From the NCBI GenBank assembly GCA_964016885.1, contig OZ024740.1, forward strand, positions 350,672,001 through 350,736,000: DNA of 64,000 nucleotides, in the 5' to 3' direction. Shown in pieces: positions 1-62,501 of the stretch. Made by a program: the position numbers and the translations under genes. Each line of letters opens with the position of its first letter. The stretch's first letter is position 1. Source of the DNA: Eledone cirrhosa. Its lineage: Eukaryota. The notes under the pieces were generated by a model. That model did not search any database and had not been told where the DNA came from. It saw only the letters and a list, made by a program, of their open reading frames with translations.

Positions 1-462
1 CGAATTAAATGGGTTTTCGTATTTCCCGCACACCTTTTTCGTCGTTGTCGTCGTCGTCGTGGAGAAATCTTGCACGCTCTGCACGTGATTTTTCTTTTCT
101 GGCGTCGCTTGCCTAAAGAGAAGGGAGGGAGAGAGACACATTTAGAGAAGGGACCGAGAGAGACAATCTTCTCTCTGCTGTAGTGACGATTGAGGAAGAA
201 GGCGGAATGAGTGGGAGTGACCTATGAAAATTCTTTTTCGTAGCCATGTTGTTTTTTTGTTTAAAATAAATATTCGGCACAAAACCCCAATAAGCGTTTA
301 TTTAACCCCGAAGGGCCAAATAACGGACAGAAAGACCCCTCTCACGAGGAGGAGGGTGTTTTTGTCTACAATTTGGTTAAAGTTTTAAACAATTTACAAT
401 TGTTATAGCGGTCAAAATTTACAATACCTTACAGAGCCGAGCCTCCGTCAACCATAGCATTC
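1..462 (-). mobile_element. Tx1/L1-clade LINE, 5' end (5'UTR plus start of ORF1); runs off window edge
   Basis: Reverse complement closely matches 10457-10920; 5' terminus GAATGCTATGGTTGAC abuts (ATT)n. Confidence 0.9.
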
Positions 463-498
463 AATAATAATAATAATAATAATGATAATAATAAATAA

Positions 499-851
499 TT
501 GATTGTGGATGTGGCCTGCCCATTCGACACGAGAGTGCAAGAGAAGGAGAGGGAGAAAATTAACCGATACAAGGACTTAAAGTGGGTGGTAAAAAGGATT
601 TGGAACTGCCATGAAGTCAAACTCGTCACGATTGTCATAGACGCACTAGGTACTATCTCAAAAAGTTTCCAAGGATGGTTAATGAAAATTGGCCCCACCA
701 CGCTTTTTGGAACGCTTCAAAAGGCATGCTTGCTGGGACCAGCAAGAACCCTCCGATACGTCCTGAATATCTGAGGCTGCAGGTAGTGGCTTGATATTAA
801 TTTCAACAAACTTTCCAGTTAACTAACATCAATGACTGAGACTCAAAGAAC
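499..851 (+). mobile_element. R4/Dong-like non-LTR retrotransposon, 5'-truncated 3' end (restriction-like endonuclease tail and 3'UTR)
   Basis: ORF 499-774 IVDVACPFD..EKEREKINRYKDL..IVIDALG..LQKACLLG matches the RLE C-terminus of R4/Dong elements; (AAT)n on both sides. Confidence 0.8.
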
Positions 852-1114
852 AATAATAATAATGCTTTCTTTATTAATCACAAGGGTTTACATAAAGTAG
901 ACATTAAGGACAGTACAGCAAAATACAGGACGGTACAAATGGGCATTTCTGCGTGTAAAAAATAAAAACAGAGGATGCAACAAAAAAATAACAATGAAAA
1001 ATTCCCCAATACAGGGGAGACTTCCGAGGGACATTCGTGGAGAAAGCCCATTAAAAAGCCACAGTGACCCTGACCACCAGGGCAACTGCCCTCTCCCTGT
1101 TTTCCACCTTTAAT

Positions 1115-4100
1115 TTACAGATACATACTCATAATAGGCCCATTCACTCGGGCCATTCTTGCCTCTCTCACCCATCTTTCAACAAAATGCTGGGAAGAGA
1201 GCACTTCCTTCTCTACCCTGATTTTCCTTTTCAAATGAAATTTGAAAAGGTTAATCAGGGCATCACCGAAGAGGTAAGTGCTCGTCTCCAGCCCTTTCTA
1301 ACGTGTCCACCATACTATCTCTTTCGCCATGGCCACCAGACAGATAAAAACAGCCTGCCCTTCCCGGCTAAAGGAAGAGGGCGGGGCAATCCTCACGATG
1401 GAATCAGCTGATAGCTGGAACCGTCCTACACGTGACAGCAGGTGTTCGATATAAACCCACTAGTCAGCAATGCTCGGACGCTGGACGAGTGCGTGCAGGA
1501 CGGTTTCGTCGCCCTACGCGCATCTCGGACATGCGCGGCTGACGGCACCTCCATGACTATAAAGTTTATCGCGAACTGGCAAAGCTCCTCCGTAGCACTG
1601 CCAGGCCAGGGATTTCAGGAAGTTGTCCATAGGCCCCGGTCCGAAAGTTCTTCCGAAGAGATTGGCTAGTTGATTTTCGTCGACGCCTAGAGTTTCCCCT
1701 GAAACATTCCAGTATCCAAGCGCTTCCTCTCGGTCTTCGCTTACCCAGGACTGCATCTCCGTCAAGGAGACGAGCTGGGGAAAGACGCGTCTAGCAAACG
1801 GCGACCACACCTGATCATCGTCGAGGAAGAGGTGGACATGTCGTAGCCTGAGCGCGTGTCTGCGCATCATCAGCCACGGCCTGCCCAGACCTCAACGTAG
1901 CGGCTGTTGACAGCAGATGGACCGCCTGACCATCGGAGCGCGTCCCTTCCACAAAAAGCGAAAGAGCAAACGCTCTAGCGCAGTCAGGCGAGGCTTAGGA
2001 GAAGGTACGACGGTCAGGCGGTAGCAGATGACAGACGCGATGTACGCGTTAGCCACCTCCGCTCGACCTTTCAGGGATAGCTTCCTCTCTGCCCATTTCT
2101 GGGTGAGAGAAGCCACCCTGCTCGTCACCTCGTCCCAGTTTTGTCCGTCTGGAGGTCCGGACCGAACCAGACCCCTAGCAATTTAACCGGTCCGTCCGTC
2201 CAGCGTCCGACGACGCTGTTGGACGGCATGGACCTGCCTCTCCGAGCTGCAGGCCCACTGACTTTTCCTGGTTGATCATTGCTCCTGTCACCGCTTCGTA
2301 TTCTCTTAGTGTAGTGCCGATCGCCTCGATGTGTTTGGCGTTCGACACCATTACGGTGACACCGTCCGCATATGCTGACACAGATCTTCCGCATCCTAGT
2401 TCGCGCGGAACCCCCCTCAACGTCTCCAGTTTGTGCAGTTATGGCTCGAGAGTCAATACGTACAAGAGCGACGAGAGGGGGCATCCTTGGCGGATCGAGC
2501 GCATGATGCTGAACGGTTCCGAAAGGTGACCGTTCACTCTCACCACAGAGCAGATGTCGCTGTGCATGGTCGCGATCCAGCTGCTCAAGACGGGCCCAAA
2601 CCCAGCCGCCCTCAGGACTGTCGCTAAGTAACGATGGTCGACCCTATCGAAAGCTTTCGACTGATCTAAATTGATCAAGGAGCCACCCAAGCCCGGTTAC
2701 CTAGCTACCCCCTCCACGATGTATCGCATGAGGTGGAGGTTGTCCATGATGGATCTATCAGGAATGGCGCATGTCTGCGCCTCTCCCACCAGACGATCAG
2801 CGACAAGCGCCAACCTCTTTGCTAGAACCTTGGCGAAAATCTTGAACTCTGTGTTTAGCAGAGTTATGGTCCTGAAATTATCCCCCTTGTTATCCCCCTT
2901 GTTCGGATCCTTTCTCAGCAGTGCCACCGCTCCTCGGCTCACAGGGCTGAGAATCCTCCCGTTCTGTTGCCAGTTGCAGTAGACGTCCGCCAAGCGGCCT
3001 CCGACCAAGTCTGGCATCTGTACGTAAAATTCGTAGGGCAAACCATCCAAACCAGGCGATTTACACCTTGTGCTTCAAGTCATTGCCTCCCGTACTTCAG
3101 CGGCTGTTATCGGCTTTTCGCAACACTCCGCCTCAGTGGCAGAGAGCCGCGGCTGTCCGTCGAGGTAGACACTAACGTCCAATCCTCGATACGGCCCACC
3201 GCAGCCCCCGAAAAGCTGAGCGAAGTGTCGCTGAAAAGCTTCACACATTTGCCCGGGATCGAGTAGCATGCGCCCGTCGTGGTCCACCAATACCGGATCG
3301 TGATTTTGTTGCCTCGACGTGCCTCCGCCACTCGGGCCCATTGAACGGCTTTCGTCCCCTCGTGTCTGAGAGCACGCACCCTAGCTCTGACAACGCAGCC
3401 TTCGTGCTTTCCATTGAAGAATTGGTCAAGGGCCAATTTCGACGCAAGTACGTCGGTCGCGATGCCTTTGCTAAGCGCCTTGTCTAATTTTCTAACTAGT
3501 TCTCCCTCTGCTCTATTTTTCTCTATAGCTAAAGTCTTACTAAACCTAATGGACTCTATTCTAATCGCTCTTTTCAGAGCAAACCACCACTTGTTGTTGA
3601 CGATGGCCCCCGTCAACGCCCGCTTAACTAGTTCGCTAATCCGGTCTCTGCAGGCCTTGCGCGCTGGTAAGGACGCGTTTAGCTTCCAGTAGCCGGGTCC
3701 TCGTCTATGAAGCCTATCTAAATCAAGCACACAGATCACGAACTTGTGGTCCGTGTAGCTGACTATCTTGAATTGTGGACAGCCTATGCTAGACCTATCT
3801 ATTTCCCTACAAAATACTCTATCTAGATATGATCTGGATGACCCGATGTGGTTTGTCCAAGTTCACATTGGCACATTCGGGAAATCCAATCGGTACCTGT
3901 CAGACAGTTCAAAACGCCTGAGCAGGTTGGTGGGGCTCTTGCACCCTCCATCCCTATCCGATAATCCCACACAGTCCCAGCGTGCATCTAAGATCCCGTT
4001 CCAGTCGCCCACTAACACTAAAGAGTAGGACGTTCCAAGAAAGGTCTCCAGGCGCCGGAAGAAATCAGGCCTGTTCGTGCCGGGGCATAGACGGCCACTA

Positions 4101-4422
4101 GCCTGAAAGCTTGCCCGTCTCCGCTGGTCACGTCCAGCACCACCAACTTACCTTCTGGTCCAGGAAGATGGCCCGTATGGCGAGATCCAAACCTCTCCGA
4201 AAAAGCACAGCAACTCCCCCCCCCCCGATCCAGGACGGCTAGGAGATGCGTACACATCGTAGCCGCCGAAGATCGTGCGAAAGTCCGTGCCTCGGAGATC
4301 CTGGTCTCGCTGATGGCCACTACACCTATGTTTAGTGACCTGAGGTCGTTGAGCAGGGGGCCCTGCTTCCATGACGACCCCAAACCACGCGCATTTATGC
4401 TGCCTATTCTGAGTGAGGTCAT
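1115..4422 (-). pseudogene. Tx1 ORF2 (APE endonuclease plus reverse transcriptase), multiply frameshifted
   Basis: ORF fragments 4018-4422, 3107-3739, 2697-3050, 2439-2690, 2175-2420, 1892-2128, 1514-1870. Confidence 0.88.
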
Positions 4423-4456
4423 GTTGAAATGGAGTGGAAAAGATGGGAAAGACCAC

Positions 4457-6194
4457 TTACCTTACTTCTCGAAGAGGAAGGATGGTTTCTCCATCCCTTT
4501 CCACTTGATCGTCTGGAGAAGGGACCGTTGAATCGTCCCTTCGGCTGGTCGTCGGCTCTTCTGTGAGTATATCCGAATATACTCTCCGGTTGAGTGTCCC
4601 TCCTAGGTCTCTGAAATCCCCAACTGCGTTTGGGAATTTTATTTTAATGTTTGTGTATTGTTTCTGTGCTATTCTTACCAGTCTTATGTTCGTTGATGTT
4701 TTGATTGGTGCTGGTATTATGTAGTCCTGCTGTGAAATGTCTGTGTGTTCAATTATGTAAGTCATTAGTTTCTTGTTGTGTGTATTTATTGTTGTGCATT
4801 TCTTTTTCTGGTGGCGGGGTGTGGTTCTGCTATTTTCTTGTCGTTGTTGCTGCGTGTGTGTTAGCGATATTGGTGCTTGTGGTGGTGGGGTTGAAGGTGT
4901 TGTTGTTGGTGGTGGTTGGGTTGCCGCCGGTGGTGATGGTGGTGCTAGTCTGGGTGGTAATGGTGTTGGTGGTGTTGTTGCTGTAAGTCTCTTTGCAGTA
5001 GCCTTTACCCTTTTTTCATTTCTTCCCTCCCTTTTCGAAGGCGACGATGCGCTGCTTCTGCGTCTGTGCCTTCTTGCAACCTTTTGCCATCCCTCTCCCA
5101 CCTCACACTCCATGTCCGATTCTGTGAGGTCGGGGATGGGTACCAGCTCCACTCTTTCATTTGTTCGTGTTGGTGATGGTTGCAGTGGAGTCTCTGTTGC
5201 AGCTGCAGTTGGTATTACTGTTGTTGTTGTTAATACTTCCACTGCTGCTGCTGTTCTTGATTTCCGTGGCGTGGGTATGGGTGCCACGGACCTATCCTTC
5301 CTGCTTGCCGCCTGTCCTGTTGCTGTAGCAGTGGAGCCGGTATCGCAAGGAGGGGGGTTTTCTCCTTTCTCAGGTTCTTCTCATTGCAGAAGGCCCTGAG
5401 GTGAGTCTTCGACCCACAGTGAAAGCATTTCGGGCGTTTACCCTCAAAACTTATGGGCAGTTGAGTGCCGTTATCGAAGTCTATCATATCCGGGATAGCT
5501 TCGATGCAATCCTGGGTGGTTTGAATTAATATCTCAATGGAGGTGCCTACCCAATCTTCTCGTACTTTTTCTGTACTTGCAGTACAGTTGTTTTGTCCTC
5601 GATTCCGACGAGGACAGACGCGGCCAGTCAAGAAGGGGCCATCCTGGGGAGGGGGGGGGGGTCAGTTTGACCCTTACAATTTTTTCCCGCAGTAGGAGGG
5701 CACCAACAGCATTTACTCGCTCCTTAGGGTCACTAAGGATTGAGCCTTTGCCTCCTGGGGTGTGGCAAAAAGCACGTCCACGGTGGGATATTTCTTGCCT
5801 CGGGTGATATGCGTTTTCCGCTGCCACACAGACGCTAAGGTTTTTTGTATTTGAGCCTCTGTGGCTCTTTCAACCCTATCTGATTTTGTGCTTACTGTAC
5901 GGTAGGTGACCGTACAGTGCTGTTGGATTTCGAAATATTCTTCGGCTGCCTGGCAGATTGCTCGATGTCCGGTTTTCGTCACCACCTTCTTTGCTTCCTG
6001 TAATTCCTCATTTGTTATAAGGATAGTTTCCAGGTTCTTTGCGATAGCTGCAAACGAGATTGGTTTTTCTTCCTTGTTGTTGTTGTTGTCGTCAGAGCTG
6101 CTGTTATTTTTGTCGTTGCTGCTGGTACTACGACCGCCGCCGCCGCCGCTGTTGCTGTGGTTGTTGTTGTTGTTGCTGCTGCTTCTGCTGTTGT

Positions 6195-6227
<33 letters not shown>

Positions 6228-6599
6228 TGCTGCTGCTCATGTTGTTGCGGCTGCTACTATTGTTTTCCTTGTCACTGTTGCTGCTGCTGCTGTTATTACG
6301 GCTGCTGCTGCTATTCTTCATGACGTTAGACGAATGAAATGGCTTTCCGTATTTACCGCACACATTTTTCGTCCTTGTCGTCGTCGTGCAGAAATGTTCC
6401 ACGGAATGCACGTTCTCTTGGTGAAAGCTACCAGAAACTATATATTTTTTTTCTTTAATGGCGTCGCTTGCGAAAGAGGTAACACCCCATTTAGATAAAG
6501 GAGTGAGAGAGACAATCTTCTCTCTGATGTAGTGACGATTGAGGAAGAAGAAGACGGAATGTGTGGGAGTGACTTGTGAAAATTCTTTTTTGTAGCCAT
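4457..6599 (-). pseudogene. Tx1 ORF1 (gag-like; Asn/Ser-rich tract, zinc knuckle, Pro/Thr-rich tail), frameshifted
   Basis: ORFs 5713-6642, 5230-5631 and 4457-5287 are collinear with copy 2 ORF1. Confidence 0.8.
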
Positions 6600-6834
6600 G
6601 TTTTTTTTTGGGGGGGGGGGGGGGGGGGGGGGTTAAAATCAATATTGATCACAAAACCCCAATAAGCAGTTATTCAACCCCGAAGGGCCAAATAACGGGC
6701 AGAAAGAACCCTCTCACGAGGAGGAGGGTGTTTTTATCTACAATTTTGTTCAAGTTTTAAATAATTTACAATTGTTATAGCGGTTAAAAATTACTATACC
6801 TTACTGAGCCGAGCCTCCGTCAACCATGGCATTC

Positions 6835-7530
<696 letters not shown>

Positions 7531-7559
7531 ACCTTCTTTGAGAAAACTGAATCCAGAGA

Positions 7560-8472
7560 CCGAATCGACTACGTTGGGGGCAGAGAGTTACTGCCCTTGC
7601 CATTCTGAATTCAAATCCCGTTGAGGTTAACTTTGCCTTTCATCCTTATGGGGGTCGATAAAATAAAGTACCAGTAATGCACTGGGTAATTGTTGGCCTT
7701 GTGCCAAAAGTAGAAATAATTATTTTTGATTCAGAAAAAATATGTTAGCCTCGACTGAAATTTAATTGGGGGCACATTGAACCGGAATTCACAGGCATGC
7801 ATGCTATTCGACGTAACAATGACATTCTAATTAACTGTCTTTATAGTTAATGCAAGTTAACTAGAAATAATTATATGGTGGGAAAAATTTATATTGAATG
7901 ACTACTATCACTATTTTAATTTTTTCGAAAAGTGTGACAGTCAATTCCGAACATATTTAAAAAAACATGTTGACCTTCCAAATGTATTCTGGCTTCCAAA
8001 GTGAATCGTTATTATCAAAATAGTGCTGAATTCATTATTATATAAGGGTGGTGGATTGGCAGTATCGGTAGAGGGTCGGACGCCATGCTTTGATGCATAG
8101 AGTTACAGTCCTTTCCAATCTGAGTTCAAATCCCGCCGAGTTTAACTTTGCCTTTCATCCTTACGGGGTCGATAAAATAAAGTATCAGTAATGCACTGGG
8201 TAATTTGCTGGCCTTGTGCCAAAAGTAGAAACAATTATTATATAAGATTGAAGGGCGATGGATTGGCAGTATTGGTAGAGCGTCGCATAATCTGCTTCGC
8301 GGCAGAGAGTTACGGCCCTTTACGTTCTGAGTTCAAATCCCGCCGAGGTTAGCTTTGCCTTTCATCCTTACTGGGTTGATAAAATAAAGTACCAGTAGCA
8401 TGCTGGAGTCGAGTTAATCGACTTTCCTCTCCCTCAAAATTGCTTGCTTTGTGCCTATAGTAGAACTCATTA
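7560..8472 (+). mobile_element. Cluster of three octopus-type tRNA-derived SINEs (about 7560-7722, 8047-8240, 8251-8472)
   Basis: Shared body GAGTTCAAATCCCGCCGAGGTTAACTTTGCCTTTCATCCTTACGGGGTCGATAAAATAAAGTACCAGT with B-box-like GTTCAAATCC. Other copies near 10170, 16360, 17255, 29010, 39300(-), 39760(-), 40475(-), 50287(-), 55870, 56205. Confidence 0.85.
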
Positions 8473-8606
8473 TTATATAATACTGAAATTTGATTGGTGC
8501 GGGAAAGTAGAATTGGGAAAAGATGTATATCTTAAAGTAGATCGCCCTGAAAAACATATGGTTCAGCATGATAAAGTGTATTTCAACAAAATTAAGAAGA
8601 AAAATC

Positions 8607-8669
<63 letters not shown>

Positions 8670-8673
<4 letters not shown>

Positions 8674-8798
8674 GTTTCTACTTTAGGCACAAGGCCAGCA
8701 ATTACCCAGTGCATTACTGGTACTTTATTTTACCTTACGTGGTCGATAAAATAAGGTACCAGTAATGCACTGGGTAATTGCTGGCCTAAAGTAGAAAC

Positions 8799-8802
<4 letters not shown>
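8670..8802. repeat. Inverted pair of SINE 3' halves between two (TA)n tracts
   Basis: aattgtttctacttt...ggtactttatttt mirrored by aaaataaggtacc...aaagtagaaacaatt. Confidence 0.75.
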
Positions 8803-8874
<72 letters not shown>

Positions 8875-10456
8875 TATCGACAGCGAAGGGATGAAAGGCA
8901 AAATTGATCTTAGGGAGCTGAACAAAGTAATGACTCTACCCATTCACCAACTTGATAGACTGATAAGGTTCGCCTCCGTAACTAATGACAGCAATGTAAG
9001 AGTAACGCAACAACCATAATGCTAAAATAGATAAAAGGTAAACTTACTGTAATTTTTGACTGATGACGAACATTTTTATTTCCTTGCCGCGTTTAACATC
9101 AAAGAATTTTCAACATTTTTTCAGTATTCTAAATGACTAGGATTTAAGAATGTATAGATTTTCGTAGGATGTCACGCTAGAAATCGTTCTTTAGTGTAAA
9201 CTATTCGAATGGAAAGGTTAAGACGAACAAAATGCTATTGATGCCTGCGGCAGTTGTGTATATATAAGAAATACTGAGTACACTTCATTAAAGTCTTCTG
9301 AGAACCGGAAATACACCGAGTAAGAGAAGGGAAGCGTAAAGAAAGGTTAATAAAGCGCACTTTGCTGATTTGAATTAATATATTTAAATATATTTGCATG
9401 GATGTATTTGTGATAATTTGTGTTAAGCTCTGTCAAGGTTACATTGCTTGATAAAAACTGTGTTTATTCGTCAGTTTCACAATATCAAAGAAACACTTTT
9501 CATGCTTATAAACGAATATATGACAAATATAATTGAGTCATTTCATAGTGGTGACAACATCGATGGTTTAAAGGGTATTAAAAATAGACCTTTTGAAAGG
9601 ATACCCGATTTTTACCGATCTGTTATTGATAAACGTTCTCAGGACGATGATTTCTAAGGTAACCTATTGAATTAAACACTAGCTGCCTGAAGGTGATATG
9701 TGCGCCAGGAAGAAAATTCTAAGATTTAGGTTTGAACAGACTTTTTTCATGAGACGTTTTGCTTGAAATATTAAAGATGTTAAAATAATTTTCTGCTCGC
9801 CAAAATCTAACATTTCCCACTAAAACACCCTCACATTTTATAATACATCGTTAATGAATTTTTTTTTTTTGTGTGTGGTGGTGGGGGCTGCAGCGAGTAA
9901 ACACTCACGGCAGTTGAATTTCACTGCACTAATTCATTCATAGGTTAATTTAGTAACGAGGTGGTTAATTGCATATTTATTCTTAATTATCAAAGTTCTT
10001 TCATCACCCATCCTGCCACCACATCAATGACTATTCTTGCTCCTCTGTGTCTTCTTTTTGTTCTGATTTTAATCTATTTATACACCCCACACATACACAT
10101 ATACACACAGAAACACACACACACACACGCACACACGCACACACGCACACACATATATATATACAGGTGCTAAGACGTCGGATAGAATACGTTACGGTAT
10201 TCGTCCCACCTCACTGCGCGCTCTGAGTTCAAATCCCGCCGTGGCCAACTTTCATCCTTTCAAGGTCGATTAAAAAAAGTACCAGTCCAGTATTGGGGTC
10301 GATTCTTCCTCTATAGAAAAAATCTTCTGTGTTCAGATCTGGAGAGGGTTGGGCTCCGCCCTGTTTAAATATGCCCAAGACATGCCGTATGACGGTGCCA
10401 CTACAACTCCACAAGGAGTTATGGTATCTTTATACTTTATTATTATTATTATTATT

Positions 10457-13400
10457 GAATGCTATGGTTGACAGAGGCTCGGCTCTGTAAGGTATTGTAA
10501 ATTTTGACCACTATAACAATTGTAAATTGTTTAAAACTTTAACCAACTTGTAGACAAAAACACCCTCCTCCTCGTGAGAGGGGTCTTTCTGCCCGTTATT
10601 TGGCCCTTCGGGGTTAAATAATCGCTTATTGGGGTTTTGTGCCCAATATTTATTTTAAACAAAAAAAACAACATGGCTACGAAAAAGAATTTTCATAGGT
10701 CACTCCCACTCATTCCGTCTTCCTCTTCCTCAATCGTCACTACAGCAGAGAGAAGATTGTCTCTCTCGGTCCCTTCTTTAAATGTGTCTCTCTCCCTCCC
10801 TTCTCTTTCGCAAGCGACGACAGAAAAGAAAAATCTCGTGCAAAGCGTGCAAGATTTCTCCACGACGACGACGACAACGACGAAAAAGGTGTGCGGGAAA
10901 TACGAAAACCCATTTCATTCGTCTGACGTCAGGAATAATAGCAGTAGCAGCCGTAATAACAACAACAACAGTTACAATGAAAACAACAGTAGCAGCCGCA
11001 ACAGCATCAGCAGCAGCATAAACAACAACAGCATTAGCAGCAGCAACAACAACCACAGCAACAGCGGTGGCGGCAGTAGTCGTAGTACCTGCAGCAACAA
11101 CAAAAGTAACAGCAGCTCTGACAACAACAACAACAAAAACAACAGCAGCAAAGAAAAACCAATCTCGTTTGCAGGTATCGCAAAGAACCTGGAAACCATC
11201 CTCATAACAAATGAGGAATTAGAGGAAGCGAAGAAGATGGTGACAAAAACTGGATACCGAGCAATCTGTAAGGCAGCCGAAAAATTTGTCGAAACCCAAC
11301 AGCACTGTACGGTCACGTACTGTACAGTAAGTACAAAATCCCGTAGGGTTGAAAGAGCCACAGAGGCTCAAATACAGAAAGCTTTGGGGTCTGTGTGGCA
11401 GCGAAAAACGCACATCACCCGAGGCAAGAAATATGCCACCGTAGACGTACTTTTTGTCACACCCCAGGAGGCAAAGGCTCAATCCTTAGTGACCCTAAGG
11501 AGCGAGGAAATGGTGTTGGTAGCCTCCTATTGCGGGCAAAAAATTGTGAGGGTCAAACTGAACCACGTCCCCCCCCCCCCGGGATGGCCCCTTCTTAGCT
11601 GGTCGCGCCTGTCCTCGTCGGAATCGAGGACAAAACAACTGTACTGCAAGTACAGAAAAAAGTAAGAGAAGATTGGGTCGGTACCACCATTGAGATGTTA
11701 ATTCAAACCAACCAGGAGTGCATCGAAGCTATCCCGGATGTGATAGACTTCGATAACGGCACTCAACTGCCCATAATTGTTGAGGGCAAACGCCCGAAAT
11801 GCTTTCGCTGTGGATCGAAGACTCACCTCAGGGCCTTCTGCAACGAGAAGACCCTGAGAAAGGAGAACCCCCCCCTCCTTCCGAAACCGGCTCCACGGCT
11901 ACCAGCAACAGGACAAGCGCAAACAGGAACGATAGGTCCGTCGCACCCATACCCACGCCACGGAAATCAAAAACAGCAGCAGCAGTGGAAGTATTAACAA
12001 CAACAACAGCAATACCAAATGCAGCTGCAACAGAGACTCCAGTGCAAACATCACCAACAACAATAAGTGAAAGAGTGGAGCTGGTACCCCTCCCCGACCT
12101 CACAGAATCAGACATGGAGTGTGAGGTGGGAGAGGAATGGCAAAAGCTCGTAAAAAGGCACAAACGCAGAAGCAGCGCATCGTCGCCTTCGAAAAGGGAG
12201 GAAAGAAATGAAAAAAGGGCTACTGCAAAGAGACTCACAGCAGCAACACCAACACCATCACCACCCACACTAGCACCACCATCATCACCGGCGACAACCC
12301 CACCGCCAACAACACCTTCAACACTACCACCACAAGCACCAACATCGCAAGCACAACAACAAAACACACACACCCAGCAACAACGACAAGAAAATAGCAG
12401 AACCACACCCCACCCCCAGAAAAACAAATGCACGGCAATAAATACACACAACAAGAAACTAATGACTTACATAAGTGAACACACAGACATTTCACAGCAC
12501 AACTACATAATACCAGCACCAATCAAAACGCCAACTAACATAAGACTGCTAAAAATAGCACAGAAACATTAAAACGAAATTCCCCAACGCAGTTGGTGAT
12601 TTCAGAGACCTAGGAGGAACACTCAACCACAATTCAAGATAGTCAGCTACACGGACCACAAATTCGTGATCTGTGTGCTTGACTTAGATAGGCTTCATAG
12701 ACGAGGACCCGGCTACTGGAAGCTAAACGCGTCCTTACCAGCGCGCAAAACCTACAGAGACCGGATTAGCGAACTAGTTAAGCGGGCGTTGACGGGGGCC
12801 ATCGTCAACAACAAGTGGAGGTTTGCTCTGAAAACAGAGATTAGAATAGAATCGATTAGGTTTAGTAAGGCTTTAGCAATAGAGAAAAATAGAGCAGAGG
12901 GAGAACTAGTTAGAAAATTAGACGAGGCGCTTAGGAAAGGCATTGCGACCGACGTGCTTGCGGCGAAATTGGCCCTTGACCAATTCTTCAATGCAAAGCA
13001 CGAAGGCTGCGTTGTCAGAGCAAGGGTGCGTGCTCTCAGACACGAGGGGACGAAAGCCGTTCATTGGACCCGAGTGGTGGAGGCGCGTCGTGGCAACAAA
13101 GCCACGATCCGGTCTTTGGTGGACCACGACGAGCGCATGCTACTCGATCCCGGGCAAATGTGTGAAGCTTTTCAGCGACACTTCGCTCAGCTGTTCGGGG
13201 GCAGCGGTGGGCCGGGTCGAGGGATGGACTTTAGTGTCTATCACGACGGACTGCTGCGGCTCTCGGCCACTGAGGCGAAGTGTTGCGAAAAGCCGATAAC
13301 AGCCGCTGAAGTAAGGGAGGCAATGACTGGCTGCACAAGGGGTAAATCGCCTGGTTTGTATGGTCTGCCCTATGAACTTTACGTACAGATACCAGACTTG

Positions 13401-15596
13401 TTCGGAGGCCTCTTGGCGGACGTCTACTGCAACTGGCAACAGAACGGGAGAATTCCGAGTTCTGTGAGCCGAGGAGCGGTGGCACTGCTGAGACAGGATC
13501 CGAACAAGGGGGATAACATAGATAATTTCCGGCCCATAACTCTGCTAAACACAGAGTTCAAGATTTTGGCGAAGGTGCTAGCAAAGAGGTTGGCGCTTGT
13601 CGTTGGTGGTCTGGTGGGAGAGGCGCAGACATGCGCCATTCCCGACAGATCCATCCACGACAACCTCCACCTCATGCGATACATCGTAGAGAGGGTAGCT
13701 AGGGAACCGGGCACGGGTGGGTCCTTGATCAATTTAGATCAGTCGAAAGTTTTCGATAGGGTCGACCATCGTTACCTAGCGGCTGTCCTGAGGGCGGCTG
13801 GCTTTGGGCCCGTCTTCAGAGGCTGGATCGCTGCCATGCACAGCGACATCTGCTCTGTGGTGAGAGTGAACGGTCACCTGTCGGAACCGTTCAGCATCAT
13901 GCGCTCGATCCGCCAAGGATGCCACCTCTCGTCCCTCTTGTACGTATTGACTCTCGAGCCATTACTGCACAAACTGGAGACGTTGAGGGGGGTTCCGCGC
14001 GAACTAGGATGCGGAAGATCCGTGTCAGCATATGCAGACGATCTCACCGTAGTGGTGTCGAACGCCAAACACATCGAGGCGATCGGCACTACACTAAGAG
14101 AATACGAAGCGGTGACAGGAGCAATGATCAACCAGGAAAAGTCAGTGGGCCTGCAGCTCGGCACCTGGAGAGGCAGGTCCATGCCGTCCAACAGCATCGT
14201 CGGACGCTGGACGGACGGACCGGTTAGACAAAAACTGGGACGAGGTGACGAGCAGGGTGGCTTCTCTCACCCAGAAATGGGCGGAGAGGAAGCTATCCCT
14301 GAAAGGTCGAGCAGAGGTGGCTAACGCGTACATCGCGTCTGTCATCTGCTACCGCCTGACCATCGTACCTTGTCCTAAGCCTCGCCTGACTGCGCTGGCG
14401 CTTTTTGTGGAAGGGACGCGCTCCGATGGTCAGGCGGTCCATCTGTTGTCAACACCCACTACGTGGAGGGCTGGGAATGCCGTGGCTGATGATGCGCAGG
14501 CACGCGCTCAGGCTACTACATCTCCACCTCTTCCTCGACGGTCTCCAGGTGTGGTCGCCGTTTGCTAGACACGTATTTCCCCAGCTCGTTTCCTTGACGG
14601 AGCTGCAGTCCTAGGTCAAGCGAAGACCGAGAGGGAGCGCCTGGAGACTGGAATGTCTTCAGACGCTCACAGCCCTCGACCAATCAGGCAATGTGATCGG
14701 TGGAAACTCCACCTCGGCGTTCTATAGAGGATTAGTGGAGGGGAAGAGCGACGACGTACTTGGGGAAACTCTAGGCGTCGACGAAAATCAACTAGCCAAT
14801 CTCTTCCGAAGAACTTTCGGGCCAGGGCCTATGGACAACTTCCAGAAATCTCTGGCCTGGCAGTGCTACCGAGGAGCCTTGCCAGTTCGGGATAAACTCT
14901 ACAGGCATGGAGGTGCCGTCAGCCGGGCATGTCCGAGATGCGCACAGGGCGACGAAACCGTCCTGCACGCACTCGTCCAGTGTCCGAAAATTGCTGACTT
15001 GTGGGTTTATGTCGAACACCTGCTGTCGTGTGTAGGACGGATCCGGCTATCATCTGAGTCCATCGTGAGGATTGCCCCGCCCTCTTCCTTTACCTGGGAA
15101 GGGCAGGCAGTTTTTATCTGTCTGATGGCCATGGCGAAAGAGATAGTATGGTGGACACGTTTGAAAGGGCTGAAGACGAGCACTTACCTCTTCGGTGATA
15201 CCATGATTGACTTTTTCAAATTTCATTTGAAAAGGAAAATCAGAGTAGAAAGGGAAGTGCTCTCTTCCCAGCATTTTGTTGAAATATGGGTGAGAGAAGC
15301 AAGAATGGCCCGAGTGAATGGGCCTACTCTGAGTATATATCTGTAAATTAAAGGTGGAAAACTGGGAGAGGACACTTGCCTTGGTGGTCAGGGTCACTGT
15401 GGCCTTTTTACTGGGCTTTCTCCACAAATGTCCCTCCGAAGTCTCCCCCCTATTGGGGAATTTTTCATTGTTATTTTTTTGTTACATCCTCTGTTTTTGT
15501 TTTTTACACGCAGAAATGCCCATTTGTACCGTACTGTATTGTCCTGCACTGTCCTTAATGTCTACTTTATGTAAACCCTTGTGGTTAATAAAGAAA

Positions 15597-15598
<2 letters not shown>
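10457..15598 (+). mobile_element. Tx1/L1-clade LINE copy 2, both ends intact, ~810-bp internal deletion of the endonuclease region
   Basis: ORF1 from ATG near 10673; ORF 12666-14324 with RT motifs (YADD); 14693-15346 zf-RVT-like (CPRC..ETVLHALVQC); (ATT)n on both sides. Confidence 0.93.
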
Positions 15599-15653
<55 letters not shown>

Positions 15654-20993: not shown

Positions 20994-21170
20994 CGAAGGA
21001 AATGTGGTAAGGAACGAGATGGACCATAACGCACCAGAGTACTCAATACTTAGGGTAGTAGAGTGGGAAATAGGAAAAAATATGACCCCGACGGCAGAGC
21101 TCAAGCCGTTTCGACGGCTATTTCCAGAAATAGCCGGCGAAACGGCTTGAGCTCTACCGTCGGTGTCATA
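20990..21170 (-). mobile_element. PLE pLTR fragment with fold-back hairpin (21081-21170); related copy at 63310-63520
   Basis: ~43-bp inverted arms; in (TA)n; homologous to 63386-63520. Confidence 0.65.
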
Positions 21171-21185
21171 CTTTATATATATATA

Positions 21186-22650
21186 TTGTTATACTTGGGG
21201 AGGGTCATATTGTTGTAATAATATTGCCAGAAATAAAAACAGAACACACGTACTGTTTGGTTGGTTTTCGCTTCTGTATCTTTTATAACTCCGCACTTAA
21301 TTCATTCGGTCCTCAATGTTTACCATTAACTGACCAACGGTCAAAAATACAGATATAATATAGATATAAACACATATATATAGTCTAAAAAGTTCTTTCG
21401 TTGCACATCTGCAATATCATCGGTGGTGCTATTATGTTCCTCCTGTTGTATTATTGTATATCTACGCCATTTTTATTTTATCTGTTTATTTACTTATTTA
21501 TTTTTGTCTTGTTCTCTGCGCATGCGTTTGCGTGTGTGTATAGTGTTTGGTGTGTGTTCGCGTTTGGGTGACTGTGTTTTGGTTATTGTATTCTATCTTA
21601 GTTTACTCATGTGCGTTTATATGCGTTTGTTGTTATTGTGCTTGTGTATATATTTATTTATTCATTTATTTATTTATATTTCTCTTGGTATTCCATTCAT
21701 TTTTTCTGTTTAGCTTTCGCCTTCTAAGTTCTATTTCACTTGCCTCTCTGATTTGCCTATCTGTTGGGTCAATTCTATGTTTAGATATTATTTTAATTTC
21801 TATGTTGTCTATGTTACCGACATGTTGTTGTCTGGTGTGTTCGTATAGGACCGAACCATTTTTCCGCCCTTTTAGTTCCCCCCAATGTTGGTCTATCCTT
21901 TCACCTATGCTACGGGCTGTCTCGCCTATGTATGTTGTTGTCATGTTTCTGCAAGTACCCTCTGTACATCTTATGCTATAGACTACGTTTCAAGTTTTAC
22001 AGTTTATCTGGGGGTTTACTTTACATATAACACATTTCCTATTAGTACAGTTGGTTTTCTTAAAAGGGTATGTTTTGCTGATCAGGAATTTTATGGTAGT
22101 TTCTGGCTTTTCTACCACTTTAATCTTTAAGTGGGTCTTTCTCAGGGTCCTTTTACACTGGTTAGCTAATTTCCCTCTGGAGGTAGCGTCCACGAACATT
22201 ACACTCTGGTATCTCTGGTTGTCGTACCATGAGGTGGCTTTCCCTATCTTATGTTTAGTCCTATCTAAGCTATTCCATGATTTGCTCCTGTATAATGGGC
22301 AAATCCCTTTCATGTCCAGTTCTATGAGTGTCTTATACTTCTCCGTGGCTTCTTTGTATACTCTGATTCTGTCTCTTTGGTTGTAGCCAGAGAACTGCAT
22401 GCGGTTGATGAAGTGTTGGATGTGTCTTTTCATTTCTGTTGGGTCGTACATGCGGGACACGTTCTTCATCACTCGTACCAAGTCTGCGATCAGAATATTA
22501 AACTTAGCACTACTGGACATTGCTGAGTTTTTGAGTATCTGGTATTTGGAGGCCATGGATTTAGTGTAGTGCGAGTGGATAATTTGGGCTCTCTCGTCTA
22601 TAGTGTTAATCCAGAGTTCCATGTCTAATACAGGTAGTCTACTGTTAGGG
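21186..22650 (-). mobile_element. Penelope-like element, 5'-truncated (RT thumb, Cys motif, C-terminal GIY-YIG, pLTR with HHR at about 21385-21430)
   Basis: LPVLDMELW..HYTKSMAS..; CxxxxCxxC; VVYSIRC..YIGETARSIGERIDQH; pLTR homologous to 62660-62915. Confidence 0.82.
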
Positions 22651-23523
22651 TGTTAATCCAGTGTTCTAAGTGGGTTGCTAACCCACTTAGAATACTGGAT
22701 TAACCCCTTTACTTTCCCCAGAGGAGAGATATGATCTGGAAATATCAGGATAAATTAAGGTAAAAGACTAATTGTCAGCGCTATCTTTTACAAATATATT
22801 TATATTCTATATCCAAACCTGCATTGTTCTGGCCTTCTAACTTCAAACGTTTATACTTCACTACACAATGCTTCAAGTAAACTACCAATTCCTTATATTT
22901 ATATATATATATATATACTTCCTTCTTGTATTATTATCTCCTAGCCTTAATGATTAATTGATTAATGTAATTAGACAATTCTATTGATTTGTTAATTGTT
23001 TATGTTTGTTTCATAACATCTAGTTGAGAACTTTTATTCGGTTTGTGTAAAGGATATAAATCCTTTGTTCAAATTTTGAATTTCATCGCCAAGACCGGGG
23101 GTTACCTCCCTTCGGATAAACCACGTGACTACTGGCGGTGTTTACTGCTAGTTTTTACAACCGGTGGCGGCAGAACGAAAACTTGTTGACGAAGTAAATT
23201 CCACTGTTCTGCCTTCCAAAACCAATAACATGCAGGCCCCTGCAAATGGATTTTATTGATTTCGGATTTACAGAAACCTAGCGGAGATATTATATATCTC
23301 CACGATGGTGCAGGTATGTGAACATTTTCCTGAGTCGGTTCTTTTCGTTGTTCTGGTCCTAAGCGGCTCGCTTATCGGTCGTTGTCTTTAATTTGCATAG
23401 CTATCTAAACGTAATGTATAAACTCTAAAGTAAAATTCCTTATTGAGTGCTTTAGCTGTATATTTCGACTGCATTCGTTAGCTTGGCTGCAACCAGAACT
23501 TCGATTATGCTGTACTTCCTTCT

Positions 23524-24146: not shown

Positions 24147-24725
24147 ATGAATAAAGTTAGTCCTTCATCAGTGATCTTCCAACCTTCATTGGTATTTCAT
24201 CGCTTTAAAGACCATATACCTCCGGTTGGTGCGAGCAACAGCTAAAGAAAGTCGTTGGGACACGCAAATAAGGGGAACGAGCGAGACTGTAAATAAACAA
24301 AGGTGGCAATGCAACGAAAAGTTAGGAAGAAAGAGTCAAGTCCCAGATTTCCATGAATATAAATTCGGTGAAGTTGTGAACGAAAGAGAATAAAGACCAT
24401 CAAACCTAGTCGAAATGTGAGCAAGGAAGGAATTCCGCACAGGTCTAACGGGAGGAAGGAGGAGTCTAGTCCCAGAATTCGGTGAACATAAGTTCTGTGA
24501 AATCGTAGACAACAGAGAAAAAAGGAACAACCAGCTTGGTCAAGCGTGCGCGAGAAAAGAATTACGCACAGGTCAAACGGGAGGAAGTAGGAGAGGTAGT
24601 AGCAGAGCGTGAGTGAGTGAAGGGTGAGGAAGAGGCTAACAGAGAGAGTGACTGTTAGAGAGGGTAAAGATACAGAGAAAGAGGAAGCAGTAAGAACGAA
24701 ATAGACGGGTCACAGCGGAGGAAAA
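24147..24725 (-). mobile_element. Retrozyme-like non-coding repeat, subfamily 1 (copy B)
   Basis: About 90% similar (by eye) to 25035-25615; flanked by TA-rich tracts. Confidence 0.85.
24160..24261 (-). ncRNA. Rearranged kink-turn hammerhead-like ribozyme (copy B)
   Basis: Same fold as 25499-25600; third K-turn pair is A.G. Confidence 0.75.
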
Positions 24726-24910: not shown

Positions 24911-25655
24911 GATCTTTAAAGCGATGAAATACCAATGATGGTTGGAAGATCACTGATGAAGGACTAACTTTATTCATATGTAACCCATTAGCAACCACGC
25001 AGCACGTTTATTCTCATATTTACACATATTTATTCCCCCGCTATGACCCGTCTATTTCGTTCTTACTGCTTCCTCTATCTCTGTATTTTTACCCTCTCTA
25101 ACAGTCACTCTCTCTGTTAGCCTCTTTCTCACCCTTCACTCACTCACTCTCTGTTACTACCTCTCCTCCTCCTCCTTCTTCCCGTTTGACCTGTGCGTAA
25201 TTCTTTTCTTTCGCACCCTTGGTCTGGCAGGTCGCTTTTTTTCTCTCTCTCGTCTACGATTTCACAGAACTTACGTTCACCGAATTCACTGACTAGATCC
25301 CTTCTTCCTCCCGTTAGACCTGTACGGAATTCCTTCCTTGCTCACATTCCAACCAGGTTTGATGGTCTTTAATCTCTCTCGTTCACGATTTCACCGAACT
25401 TATATTCATGGAAATTTGGGACTTGACTCCTGCATCCTCATTATTCGTTGCTTCACCATCTTTGTTTGTTTACACTCTCGTGTCCCCTTTATTTACGTGT
25501 CCCAACGACTTTTTTTAGCCGTTGCTCGCACCAACCGGAGGTATATGGTCTTTAAAGCGATGAAATACCAATGATGGTTGGAAGATCACTGATGAAGGAC
25601 TAACTTTATTCATATGTAACCCATTAGCAACCACGCAGCACGATTATTCTCATAT
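24911..25655 (+). mobile_element. Retrozyme-like non-coding repeat, subfamily 1; 636-nt unit with ~110-nt terminal direct repeat
   Basis: 24911-25020 recurs at 25547-25656; no meaningful ORF. Confidence 0.88.
25499..25600 (+). ncRNA. Rearranged (non-circularly permuted) kink-turn hammerhead-like ribozyme (copy A); predicted cut after 25545
   Basis: GGTA-TA^TGGTCTT..GCGA-T-GAAA-TACC..AAGATCA-CTGATGA-A-GGAC; helices covary with subfamily 2. Confidence 0.78.
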
Positions 25656-25740
25656 TTATATATATATATATGTAATATGTATATATGTATATTTGCTATC
25701 ACCACTTGTGTAGAAGAAAGTTAAATAACAGCCTACCAAT

Positions 25741-26835
<1,095 letters not shown>

Positions 26836-28089: not shown

Positions 28090-28568
<479 letters not shown>

Positions 28569-33121: not shown

Positions 33122-35330
33122 TTATTCTTTGTTGCTGTGTGAACGAATCTGAGCACTTGTAGAAGGGGAAATTTTAAAGTTGGGTAGTGTCATTCCTGCG
33201 CAGTTCGCAATATGGCTGCTCAAGGGGATTTTTCTTGTGTTAGCGTCCCGGATTTGTTGGCGGTGGATGGTCATTCTTTTGCGTAATGAGGTTCCCGTCT
33301 GTCCTATGTAGTTGTGTTTGCACCCACCGCAAGTTATTGCGTAAATCAAGTTCTCCGAGTTGCAGGTGAAATTGTTTTTTACTGTAAATGTTTGGCCATC
33401 TTTAAATGTATATTTGTGTCCTTCTGTGAGGTAGAGGCACGTTCCACAGTTTGTTCTACCACATTTGGTAACTGTAGGGTTGAGGATTGGTTTGGGTATA
33501 TTTGGTCCTTTGAGAATGCGTTTTAGTGATATGGGTTGTCTTTTACTTTTAAGGATCTTGTGTGTTTCAAGAATAGACTTCATTTTTACATCTTTAAGTA
33601 GGATGGGGAGGTTTTTGTGTAGGTGATCAAACATTTCGGTATTTCTGGGGTTGAAAGTGGGTACATATGGCAGGGTGTTGAGTGTGGTTTTCTATTTTGG
33701 ATTGTTAAGTTGATGGGGATTTAGGTGTTTTGCCCTGTCTATTCCATTGTTGATTATTTCAAGTGGAAAGGCTCTTAAGATAAGGGTGTCTTTTAGTTCC
33801 TTTAGTCTTTGCTCCCGTTTAGGTGGATCTGATACTATGGTACATATACGTTTGGCCAAATTGTAAGGAATGTTAAGTTTTGTATGTTTTGGGTGACTTG
33901 ATGTGAAAAAGAGGTATTGCTTGAAATCTGTGGGTTTATAGAATATATCTGTATCTAATTTCCCGTCTATTACAGAGATGAGAATATCCAAGAAGGCTAA
34001 TTCCTTGGGATTGGATTCCATTGTGAATTGTATGTTATTATCTATGTTGTTTATCATGTTTTTAAACATAGTAAGTGAGTTCATGTCTTCTTGCCATAGG
34101 ATAAAGCAGTCGTCTAGATATCTTTTCCAATTGGCTTTGAGGTGTGTGTGGAAAGAGTCTCCAAATAAGAGAAGGGACTGACTGTATATTTGTTGTTCAT
34201 GGAATCCCATGACTAGGTTGGCATATGTGGGTGCTACTTTCGTGCCCATTGCAGTACCTGATACTTGTCTGTATGTTGGACCATTGAATGTGAAGTAGTT
34301 ATTTTGTAGGATAAAGCGGAGTCCGTCAGTGATAAAATCTTTGTTGATGCGTGTCGGTATTTCTGATGGGTGTGTGTTAAGCCAGTATTGGACTGCTGTT
34401 ATTCCATAGTTGTGGGGTATGTTTGTGTAGAGGTTTATTACGTCAAAGGAGACAAGAATTGTATTTGCACTTACTGTTTTAGGGAGGTGCTTCAGCATGT
34501 CAAGGTCATCTCGTATGTCGCTCTGTATATGTTGTAGAAAGGGTTTCAGTAGGATGTCCAGAAAGTTGCTAAGTCTGTGGGTTTCACATGTAGGGCCTGC
34601 TATAATTGGCCTGAGTTTTAGGTCTTCTGGTGGTGTTAGTTCAATGTAATTGTTGGTTGAGGTCTCACATGCATCGTTTATGGGTTTACATTTGTGGAGT
34701 TTCGGTAAGCCGTAAAAAGAGCTTGTATTGCATTTGAAGTGGCTTATATAGTTAAACTCTTTTGTGGTTAAGCTGTTGCGGTATTTATTCAGTAAGGTCA
34801 AAAGGTTCCCATTGTTTTGGTGTATTTGTAGTTTTCTGTTTTTTCATAGTATGTGTTGTTTTCTAAAATGTTAAGTGCGAGGGTCCTATAGTAGTCCGTA
34901 TTCATAATGACAACAGTACTGCCTTTATCGGCTTCTTTGATAGTTATCTCAGGGTTGTTTCTAAGTGTGAATAATTCTTCCCATTCGTGTGTAGATAGGT
35001 TTGATTTCGTGTGTTTATTTGTAATTTTTTCATAGGGAAAGTTGGTGATGTGTTCGCAGTACGTGTCCAGTGCTTTATTTCTTCCCTTTTGTGGGCAGAA
35101 ATTACTTTTATTTCTAACCAGTGATTCGTCTTCAGTGTTGGTGTCGTTGTGGAAGAATTCCGTTAGTCGCAGCTTTCGGCAGTATTCCATGATGTCATCC
35201 TTCATTTCGGGGAAGTTTGGTTTACGTGGTGTAGGTGTAAATTTCAGGCCCTTACTTAAAATGTTGATTTGTGTGTTGGTTAGAGGTGTCTTTGAGAGGT
35301 TGATTATTTTTGGTTTCTCCTGAGGGGGGG
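33122..35330 (-). pseudogene. PLE RT/GIY-YIG ORF, frameshifted
   Basis: ORFs 34798-35205, 33692-34801, 33122-33634. Confidence 0.9.
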
Positions 35331-35890
35331 GGGGGCCATCGAGTATCCTGGTATTTCAGGCTTTTCCCTAAAAAAGGAATGTAGTTTTGTGTGTGATTAT
35401 ATTTTGTTGGTCTGTTGCGTGTGGGTCTGTAGCTTGTTGTTTCATGAGGGTGAAAGGGTATAAAAAATGACCGGTTTCGATGGGTCTGCAAAAGCCATCT
35501 TTTCAAATGTTGATTAATATTAAGAAAATTAATAATAATAAGAGTTAAAATTTGAGATTTGAAAATTCAAGTATAAAATTCAGTGTGGGATCTCATAGTA
35601 GTTTTCATCTTGGTAGCAGCAAGTTGACTGCTGTGTGCCTTTCTGGTAGCGAATGAGGAGTTATTTGGGGGAGTGGGTTATTTTATAAAGGTCAGATTTA
35701 GCAAATCTGACCTTTATAAAATAACCCACTCCCCCAAATAACTCCTCATTCGCTACCAGAAAGGCACACAGCAGTCAACTTGCTGCTACCAAGATGAAAA
35801 CTACTATGAGATCCCACACTGAATTTTATACTTGAATTTTCAAATCTCAAATTTTAACTCTTATTATTATTAATTTTCTTAATATTAATC

Positions 35891-35938
35891 AACATTTGAA
35901 AAGATGGCTTTTGCAGACCCATCGAAACCGGTCATTTT
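35891..35938 (+). ncRNA. Type I hammerhead variant with U3-A8 core (also 31918-31965 and about 35464-35511 on -)
   Basis: TTGAAAA-GATGG..CCATC-GAAA-CCGG-TC. Confidence 0.65.
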
Positions 35939-36040
35939 TTATACCCTTTATTATTTCCTTACCTTATAAAATTATATGTTTTTTCACAAAAAAGTATTCT
36001 GTCTCTTATATATTCCATGTGCCATTACCAACCTCAATTT

Positions 36041-36449
<409 letters not shown>

Positions 36450-51227: not shown

Positions 51228-51588
51228 AAATTAATAAAATAATGAATAAACAAAGAAACAGTTCCTTATATTAAAAAAACTTCATCATTTTACGATCGTT
51301 TCTAGGATATATATGTGTTAGAGTTGGTATGCATATTCTATAGATCTATGTACAATATACAATATTTATACAAACTATCAGAGGGAATATACATACCTAC
51401 ACATATATATGCGTAGTAGGTATGTATATTCCCTCTGATAGTTTGTATAAATATTGTATATTGTACATAAATCTATAGAATATGCATACCAACTCTAACA
51501 CATATATATCCTAGAAACGATCGTAAAATGATGAAGTTTTTTTAATATAAGGAACTGTTTCTTTGTTTATTCATTATTTTATTAATTT
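51228..51588. repeat. Near-perfect palindrome (~173-bp arms, 15-nt loop) of pLTR sequence
   Basis: One mismatch seen; contains GAAA-CGATCG-TA hammerhead half. Confidence 0.85.
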
Positions 51589-52507: not shown

Positions 52508-52532
<25 letters not shown>

Positions 52533-52538
<6 letters not shown>

Positions 52539-53120
52539 ACAAACGTGCTGCGGGGTTGCCAATGGATTACATATGAATAAAGTTAGTCCTTCATCAGTGA
52601 TCTTCCAACCATCATTGGTATTTCATCGCTTTATAGACCATATACCTCCGTTTGGTGCGAGCAACAGCTAAAAAAAGTCGTTGGGAGACGTAAATAAAGG
52701 GGACACGAGTGTAAACAAACAAAAATGGTGAAGCAACGAAAAGTGAGGAAGAAGGAGTCAAGTCCCAAATTTCTATGAATTTAAATTCGGTGAAATCGTG
52801 AACGAGAGAGAATAAAGACCATCAAACCTGGTTGAAATGAGAGCAAGGAAGGAATTTCGCACAGGTCTAACGGGAGGAAGAAGGGGTCTAGTCTGTGAAT
52901 TCGGTAAACATAAGTTCTGTGAAATCGTAGACGAGAGAGAGAAAAAATGCCGACCGGCCTGGCCAAGCGTGCGAAAGAAAAGAATTACGCACAGGTCAAA
53001 CGGGAAGAAGGAGGAGGAGGAGAGGTAGTAACAGAGAATGAGTGAGCGAGTGAAGGGTGAGGAAGAGGCTAACAGAGAGAGTGACTGTTAGAGAGGGTAA
53101 AGATACAGAAAAAGAGGAAG
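52533..53120 (-). mobile_element. Retrozyme-like repeat subfamily 1 (copy D) with rearranged HHR at 52586-52687
   Basis: Homologous to 25070-25655; core intact, three helix mismatches. Confidence 0.85.
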
Positions 53121-57061: not shown

Positions 57062-57067
<6 letters not shown>

Positions 57068-61853: not shown

Positions 61854-62501
61854 TATATATATATATTAGCACAGCATTAACGAAGCTTTTGGTTGCGGCC
61901 AAGCTACCGAATGCAGATTCGGAATGCAACTTAGCACTCGATGGAGAATAATACCCCAGAGTTATAACAATACGTTTAGACAGCTTTGCAAATCAAATAT
62001 AGCGACCGACAGTCTAGCCGCATTGCCATAGCAACGAAAAAAACTGAACTCAGGAAAAGATTTTGACTGACCTGGACCATAACGTGGACATCGAATGCAA
62101 CACATAACGCATAACGTATAGCATACAATATACATGACATATAACATGCAACATCCACGCTGGGTTTCTGTAAATCCGAGATATATATATACATGTGTGT
62201 GTGCGTCTGTGTGTGCGTCTATCCATTCATATACGAAAAAAAATGGAGCTGATATTTACATCTCACAAATCACACCAGACATTGTAATTTTTGTAGAATC
62301 TCCAGTCTAAGGAGCATGTCGATAATGGAGTTGGGTCCAGAACTTCTATGGGTCGCCCTCAGCCAATCCTCTCAGAAACGCGCGTAACAAGTCGATACAA
62401 TAAATAACTGAATACATGTAAACGAAACTTAATATATACACTCTGCCTCTTCATCGAGTGTTCGTTTCGGTGTCACTACCAGTAATTCACTGAATAATAT
62501 A

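Follow-up and report, generated by a model that had tools for sequence, protein, structure and literature searches.

In known hammerheads, stems I and II lie at the opposite end of the catalytic core from stem III, and retrozymes carry hammerheads of type I. The standard k-turn is a kink of about 50 degrees with A-minor contacts, and proteins of the L7Ae family prefer U at its third bulge position (L3). Type-SGC hammerheads (HRIMA-1 and variants) have been described from metatranscriptomes and from none of the genomes of known organisms (Eckert et al. 2023, PMC10085705), and a k-turn is known in RNase P (PMC5061560). The literature searched here yielded neither a natural k-turn in a small self-cleaving ribozyme nor an S-G-C hammerhead in an animal genome, and the words 'kink' and 'k-turn' are absent from the text and supplement of Eckert et al. 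(PMC10085705).

In the window, i.e. the whole 64,000-nt stretch of Eledone cirrhosa DNA under analysis, a k-turn spans positions 25531-25581 (+) of a repeat copy termed copy A, with exactly the sequence first described. The preliminary description had listed a C-stem TACC:GGTA, the bulge AAT, tandem G.A/A.G pairs and a 6-bp helix, all of which are present. GGTA at 25540-25543 pairs with TACC at 25566-25569; the bulged strand (25570-25575, +) reads L1-L3 AAU, 1b G25573, 2b A25574 and 3b U (T25575); and the non-bulged strand (25537-25539, +) reads 3n G25537, 2n G25538 and 1n A25539, with 8, 1 and 0 lineage changes, respectively. The NC helix is formed by 25531-25536 (+) and 25576-25581 (+), with 93.1% pairing and five of six pairs compensatory in the covariation alignment. 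The third pairs had also been read correctly, being U.G in copy A, A.G in the inverted copy (24160-24234, -) and U.U, with bulge TAT, in the subfamily-2 copies at 61318 (-) and 61837 (-). On every sequence feature by which a k-turn is recognised, copy A reads as one.

MFE folding returned a 2x5 internal loop at this place, and the z-scores of the window copies were only -2.2 to +0.03, so that folding energy alone supports the motif weakly. A genome search with the pattern 'GA + core + 3-nt bulge + GA', which demanded the k-turn and left the linker free, gave 16,265 matches, compared to 23 for the reversed pattern, an excess beyond chance; even with the linker free, it was mostly T-A-A.

In copy A, AUA links the 5' strand of stem III to that of stem I; GAAA follows, leading into the 3' strand of stem III, and the 3' strand of stem I, leading into CUGAUGA, comes last. 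This block order is S-G-C, a non-circular hammerhead arrangement. The C-stem of the k-turn is stem III of the hammerhead, which the k-turn extends; with U16.1 (25544) added, it forms the stem III 5' strand (25540-25544, +; 95.2% paired, two of five pairs compensatory). The predicted scissile bond follows A25545 of the AUA triplet (25545-25546, +), as judged by analogy with hammerheads and by an enrichment of 5'-truncated copies. The stem I 5' strand (25546-25551, +) pairs with 25583-25588 (96.8% paired, five of six pairs compensatory) and crosses stem III as a pseudoknot. Positions 25552-25561 (+) comprise a UUAAA linker, the 3' strand of an extra helix (25557-25560) and 11.1 (T25561), which pairs with A25596. 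Block G (25562-25569, +), assigned from the sequence, holds the GAAA core and the stem III 3' strand, and block C (25583-25596, +), assigned from sequence and covariation, holds the stem I 3' strand, the CUGAUGA core (25589-25595) and 10.1 (25596).

The strand after CUGAUGA contributes a single stem II pair, 10.1-11.1 (86.1% paired, four pair types), and four more pairs come from an upstream strand. This strand (25526-25529, +) pairs with 25557-25560 in an extra 4-bp helix, in which 93.7% of cells were paired and two of four pairs compensatory; one of its pairs ranks seventh in the mutual-information list. This helix likely takes the place of most of stem II.

The structure sample consisted of all 100 matches within the first 35.09 Mb of C1. 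For the covariation alignment, 79 distinct copies were chosen, including two with a 5' truncation. Across the 22 pairs tested, 94.4% of 1727 cells were paired and 15 pairs were compensatory; the covariation score, which is inflated by shared ancestry, was 0.421 versus 0.214 for shuffled and at most 0.130 for slid alignments. Covariation extended across subfamilies and covered four helices plus one pair, including both helices flanking the k-turn. The earlier placement of the k-turn in a ribozyme is supported, and this ribozyme is of the hammerhead type. A second extra helix, between an upstream AGUU-like strand and the strand after CUGAUGA, was not supported by the covariation test. Of the strands for a 3' helix clamping stems I and II, the one before stem I is taken up by the NC helix; one alternative for the 3' strand was 71.2% paired, with covariation no higher than that of slid alignments. 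A standard (circularly permuted) hammerhead could be built neither within nor across monomers, because every reading was SGC, GCS or CSG. Rfam at gathering thresholds gave no match within the window, with only sub-threshold matches near the ribozyme.

Single nucleotides connect the distal end of the NC helix with stem I and with the helix replacing stem II. Since in known hammerheads stems I and II lie across the core from stem III, a sharp bend would be needed at the stem III extension, and the connectivity agrees with the original proposal, by which the bend brings the strand back from stem III into stem I.

Copy A belongs to a non-coding insertion (24913-25669, +) that begins with a 5'-truncated ribozyme, continues through a monomer of 636 nt into the full ribozyme and closes with a short tail at (TA)n; its sense strand contains no ORF of 120 aa. 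The window additionally holds an inverted, 5'-truncated copy of the same element with third pair A.G (24149-24723, -), a further subfamily-1 copy with k-turn (52517-53120, -), a subfamily-2 tandem of two ribozymes 519 nt apart with bulge UAU and third pair U.U (61198-61880, -), and a divergent copy with a non-standard k-turn (2n = U, bulge CGA, third pair C-G; 63039-63130, -). In the 3.0 Gb genome, a 32-base core occurs in 2,229 exact copies, and a linker-plus-core pattern, of which the core letters are a part, had 19,459 matches (control, 0). Tandem units mostly lay 480-560 or 620-760 nt apart. Of the close pairs in a set of 186 copies, 15 were divergent and none convergent, and 79 of 100 copies had (TA)n no more than 120 nt downstream. 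The same features (tandems, 5' truncation, inverted neighbours and (TA)n) make up the insertion anatomy of Penelope-like elements (PLEs) in Craig et al. 2021 (PMC8557442), and by this likeness the non-coding repeat is likely a non-autonomous Penelope-like element.

Long tandem arrays were seen at C1:81546794-81562766, with at least 29 ribozyme monomers of about 515 nt, and at C1:43918164-43924210, with nine monomers of about 740 nt. Inside the monomer upstream of copy A, a degenerate copy of the ribozyme 5' half was found at about 25346-25372 (+) as part of a 129-nt duplication; copy L163 resembles a junction between such an internal 5'-half remnant and the ribozyme. The repeat is covered by contigs of two sequencing runs of unknown type, which are uninformative on expression or circles. 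Searches with the ribozyme-plus-k-turn pattern gave no match in viral contigs, and two metagenome matches were discarded as chance, both being without stems I and III.

An autonomous partner sharing the ribozyme terminus was not found in the genome with two narrow Naiad ORF patterns. The Naiad motif pattern had three genome matches, none in a real ORF, and is too narrow for this to imply absence; the ribozyme motif of two octopus Naiads had no match in the Eledone genome. PLE ORFs beside three copies were rejected as partners, as this PLE is also found on its own, lacking the ribozyme, and the two meet at (TA)n; the neighbouring C-terminal-EN PLEs are separate insertions. At locus L186, a 699-aa RT-EN PLE ORF (1-2097, -) and a Hydra-like PLE fragment (4405-5316, -), resembling Hydra-1_Obim by eye, were noted. 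The window itself carries three broken C-terminal GIY-YIG Penelope-like elements (21690-22652, -; 33122-35355, -; 57065-58584, +), none of them linked to the S-G-C ribozyme.

Other features of the window include long perfect or near-perfect fold-back palindromes (21077-21174, 28175-28369, 35453-35949, 36234-36449 and 51260-51556), which are probably inverted junctions of other PLE-type repeats, and a LINE-like element in two copies of inverted orientation (1-15616). Further CTGATGA-containing repeat families, at 29740 (+), 61048 (+), 53845 (-) and 29977 (+), may hold minimal standard hammerheads. An intronless MAK16-like ORF (25729-26835, +) with Ribosomal_L28e and Mak16 domains and a 36-codon GAA run begins about 60 nt past the repeat, which lies with its ribozyme just upstream on the same strand.

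Copies intact from +1 and broken just upstream numbered 137, compared to 17 at a control boundary six bases further up. Among 20 that were fetched, 16 were true truncations and four were point changes or small indels; half of the 16 were fold-back junctions, at which the end could have been dictated by microhomology. The corrected ratio was 6.4 versus an expected 2.8 (p about 4e-4 in a rough model). In the 100-copy sample, six starts fell within -7 to +5 and two within -38 to -8, and the partial copy in the window itself begins about 2-3 nt past the predicted cut site. From this indirect footprint of truncated copies, we infer that the RNA would cleave after A25545.

Conservation of the k-turn was scored in the 92 intact copies, i.e. 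the 100-copy sample minus eight copies truncated or deleted on the 5' side; the sampling pattern had fixed none of the scored positions. The 1b.1n pair was G.A in 88 copies, the 2b.2n pair was A.G in 85 and A.U in seven, and the closing pair of the C-stem was C-G in 82, with GA at 1b/2b in 98 of all 100. For the lineage analysis, a tree was built from flanks only (about 160 nt) for 141 of the 186 copies, namely those with a 23-nt spacer and an intact stem III. Internal branches carried no change at 1n, 1b, 2b or either base of the closing C-G and one at 2n, compared to 11 at L1, two at L2, six at L3, ten at 3b and eight at 3n. Part of the 141 copies came from the 32-base core pattern, which did fix 2n and 1n. 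The one shared change among the G.A pairs, G/U at 2n, is a common natural departure known from Kt-23 (PMC5061560; PMC3985660). Thus, 1n, 1b, 2b and the closing C-G are as invariant as the catalytic core while their neighbours vary, and the k-turn is under lineage-level constraint in the main clade. The canonical form predominates in the most numerous families.

A looser search brought up rarer, more diverged families, one clade of which was re-collected with the k-turn letters left free. This sister clade, more decayed than the main families, gave 503 matches (control, 0), and its families align with the main ones. The first 40 copies fetched comprised one canonical k-turn, nine with GA/UA, 14 with GA opposite UC or UU and 16 others, the last being mostly copies with a longer stem III and an opposite-strand bulge, together with a few decayed ones. 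Within the group of 14, one family has a plain 3-nt bulge followed by an 11-bp Watson-Crick helix.

A comparable picture was obtained for Naiad 3' ends, parsed by eye from the supplement of Craig et al. 2021 (PMC8557442) for part of its 54 Naiad sequences. Two of the eight ends in S-G-C order have the k-turn: those of Naiad_Obim and Naiad_Ovul share the ribozyme architecture of the Eledone repeat, to which they are otherwise unrelated in sequence, and their k-turn is canonical, with AAU or AGU as bulge and U.U as third pair. Among the remaining ends, three from Acropora have a long stem III with a 6-7-nt bulge, one has a plain 3-nt bulge, one a 1-nt bulge, and that of Beroe is branched with a weak stem I. 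With sister families and six Naiad ends using other bends, it is the bend that is retained and not its kind, and a k-turn at a spot where related repeats have other bends likely acts as an elbow. The best reading is an interchangeable structural elbow and not an obligate protein switch.

Taken together, we consider it probable that the k-turn serves the predicted S-G-C hammerhead of this non-coding Penelope-like repeat as a structural elbow, placed on its extended stem III. The kink would fold the NC helix back alongside the core, whereby its strands could reach stem I and the stem-II-replacing helix via the 1-nt links. Mg2+ and tertiary restraints within the ribozyme itself would likely drive folding; SNU13 may stabilise some subfamilies by binding and is probably not required. 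Cleavage after A25545 would cut tandem transcripts into 500-750-nt monomers, which a Naiad-type PLE enzyme may copy back into (TA)n sites.

The strongest competitor, in our estimate unlikely, holds that the dominant families evolved a canonical k-turn to which host SNU13/15.5K is recruited, locking the kink and either promoting or gating cleavage or ligation. Help of this kind from the host protein is possible: the bulge, G.A pairs and closing C-G pairs of copy A match the U4 k-turn strands in PMC2952850, and with an AAU bulge like that of U4, SNU13 may bind. The canonical GA/GA form in 85 of the 92 intact copies could reflect a gain from protein binding, and L2 was a purine in 99 of 100 copies. 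The third pair was U.U in 39 of 92 intact copies, as in the octopus Naiad ends listed above, which also have L3 = U; box C/D k-turns with this pair do not fold in metal ions alone, and all 16 third-pair variants of Kt-7 fold upon L7Ae binding (PMC5061560). Under the published rules for folding without protein (PMC5061560), copy A, with U.G at 3b,3n, belongs to the 3n = G case. The classes with 3n = G or 3b = C, which fold in Mg2+ and mark the protein-free SAM-I k-turns (PMC5061560), account for 40 of the 92 intact copies, copy A among them.

Further evidence speaks against recruitment of SNU13. The preliminary description had relied on a conserved U at L3, and this argument failed: genome-wide, U was found in 74 of 100 copies (C in 13, G in nine, A in four), with whole families carrying C, G or A and the six changes between lineages seen in the tree. 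U did hold for the copies first compared, but not for the window copy at 63074 (-), which has A. L7Ae contacts have been placed on L1, L2, G1b and G2n (PMC5061560), and families with 2n = U forfeit the G2n contact. Moreover, tertiary contacts alone can fold an impaired k-turn, as in SAM-I G2nA (PMC5061560). The canonical k-turn is missing from most sister copies and from six Naiad ends. The view that the motif points to SNU13 promoting or gating cleavage is not supported as first put, given that the ribozyme persists with bends other than k-turns in sister families and at most Naiad ends and that the U.G of copy A is of the protein-free class. A bolder version, by which the top retroelement families converted a plain bulge into a U4- or box C/D-like k-turn and so recruited SNU13 as a ribozyme cofactor, is in our view similarly doubtful. 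If true, this would make it the first natural small ribozyme in an animal transposon to be gated by a host protein; plain bulge, A.U k-turn and canonical k-turn would be the evolutionary intermediates, coexisting in the same genome.

We regard it as distinctly improbable that the G.A pairs form an ordinary 2x5 internal loop, or are an inherited accident, with any flexible bulge being enough and no k-turn geometry involved. Relatives do manage with plain bulges, in one family the GA of the bulged strand predates or outlasts the k-turn as Watson-Crick pairs, and the MFE z-scores are near zero in two window copies. Such a loop would nevertheless leave unexplained why the G.A positions 1n, 1b and 2b and the closing C-G are fixed like the catalytic core in the main clade, and why the unrelated octopus Naiad ends have the same k-turn at the same place. 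A box C/D-like RNA instead of a ribozyme, its k-turn formed from GAUGA (25559-25563) and CUGA (25589-25592), can be dismissed as exceedingly improbable, for the weak Rfam match to snR66 (E 0.16) reaches 22.8 bits versus a gathering score of 65, and the box-C-like letters vary in several families while hammerhead core, cleavage triplet and helices are kept.

Having weighed these alternatives, the elbow on stem III can be set against the known systems. With type-SGC HRIMA-1 (PMC10085705), the Eledone ribozyme shares the S-G-C order, the full core and a short linker from the stem I 5' strand to the strand before GAAA. In the HRIMA-1 sequences compared, the strand after CUGAUGA takes part in a regular stem II of 5-6 bp, with stems I and II clamped by a 3' helix (PMC10085705), whereas in the Eledone ribozyme that strand gives 1 bp, the upstream strand supplies the rest of stem II, and stem III continues via the k-turn. 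The pistol-like hammerhead of Zhan et al. 2024 (PMC11300833) is similar in that helix II is replaced by distant-strand pairing and an A-rich linker is present; it differs in strand order, and the available text of that paper mentions no k-turn.

Non-LTR retrozymes are alike in being non-coding tandem monomers with one hammerhead each that are proposed to be non-autonomous PLEs (bioRxiv 10.64898/2026.07.22.740005); kinks, permuted ribozymes, molluscs and cephalopods go unmentioned in the available part of that preprint. Naiad PLEs resemble the repeat in their (TA)n targets, partial tandems, inverted 5'-truncated copy and tail (PMC8557442). The Eledone repeat differs in having no ORF and in a ribozyme sequence unlike those of the two octopus Naiads. 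Naiads were reported to be without hammerheads (Craig et al. 2021, PMC8557442), and the S-G-C ribozyme at the ends parsed here points to the ribozyme that they were thought to lack.

The standard simple k-turns (HmKt-7, U4, box C/D, SAM-I) and Kt-23 have the same 3-nt bulge, G.A plus A.G pairs and C-G closing pair, and known k-turns share the third pairs U.G, A.G and U.U and the 2n = U variants with Eledone copies (PMC5061560, PMC3985660). The Eledone candidate stands apart from them in that both of its helices are closed by long-range strands in a multi-pseudoknotted ribozyme. The k-turn thereby offers an answer to how a scrambled strand order can be closed, a geometric question that Eckert et al. 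left unanswered for their own ribozymes (PMC10085705). One genome presents a natural series at a single joint, from the plain 3-nt bulge and G.A plus A.U to the canonical k-turn and the opposite-strand bulge, and the role of the kink and of SNU13 is therefore directly testable. What is new here, beyond the known systems, is that the k-turn positions were tested by lineage, that the L3 argument failed and that alternative bends form this natural series.
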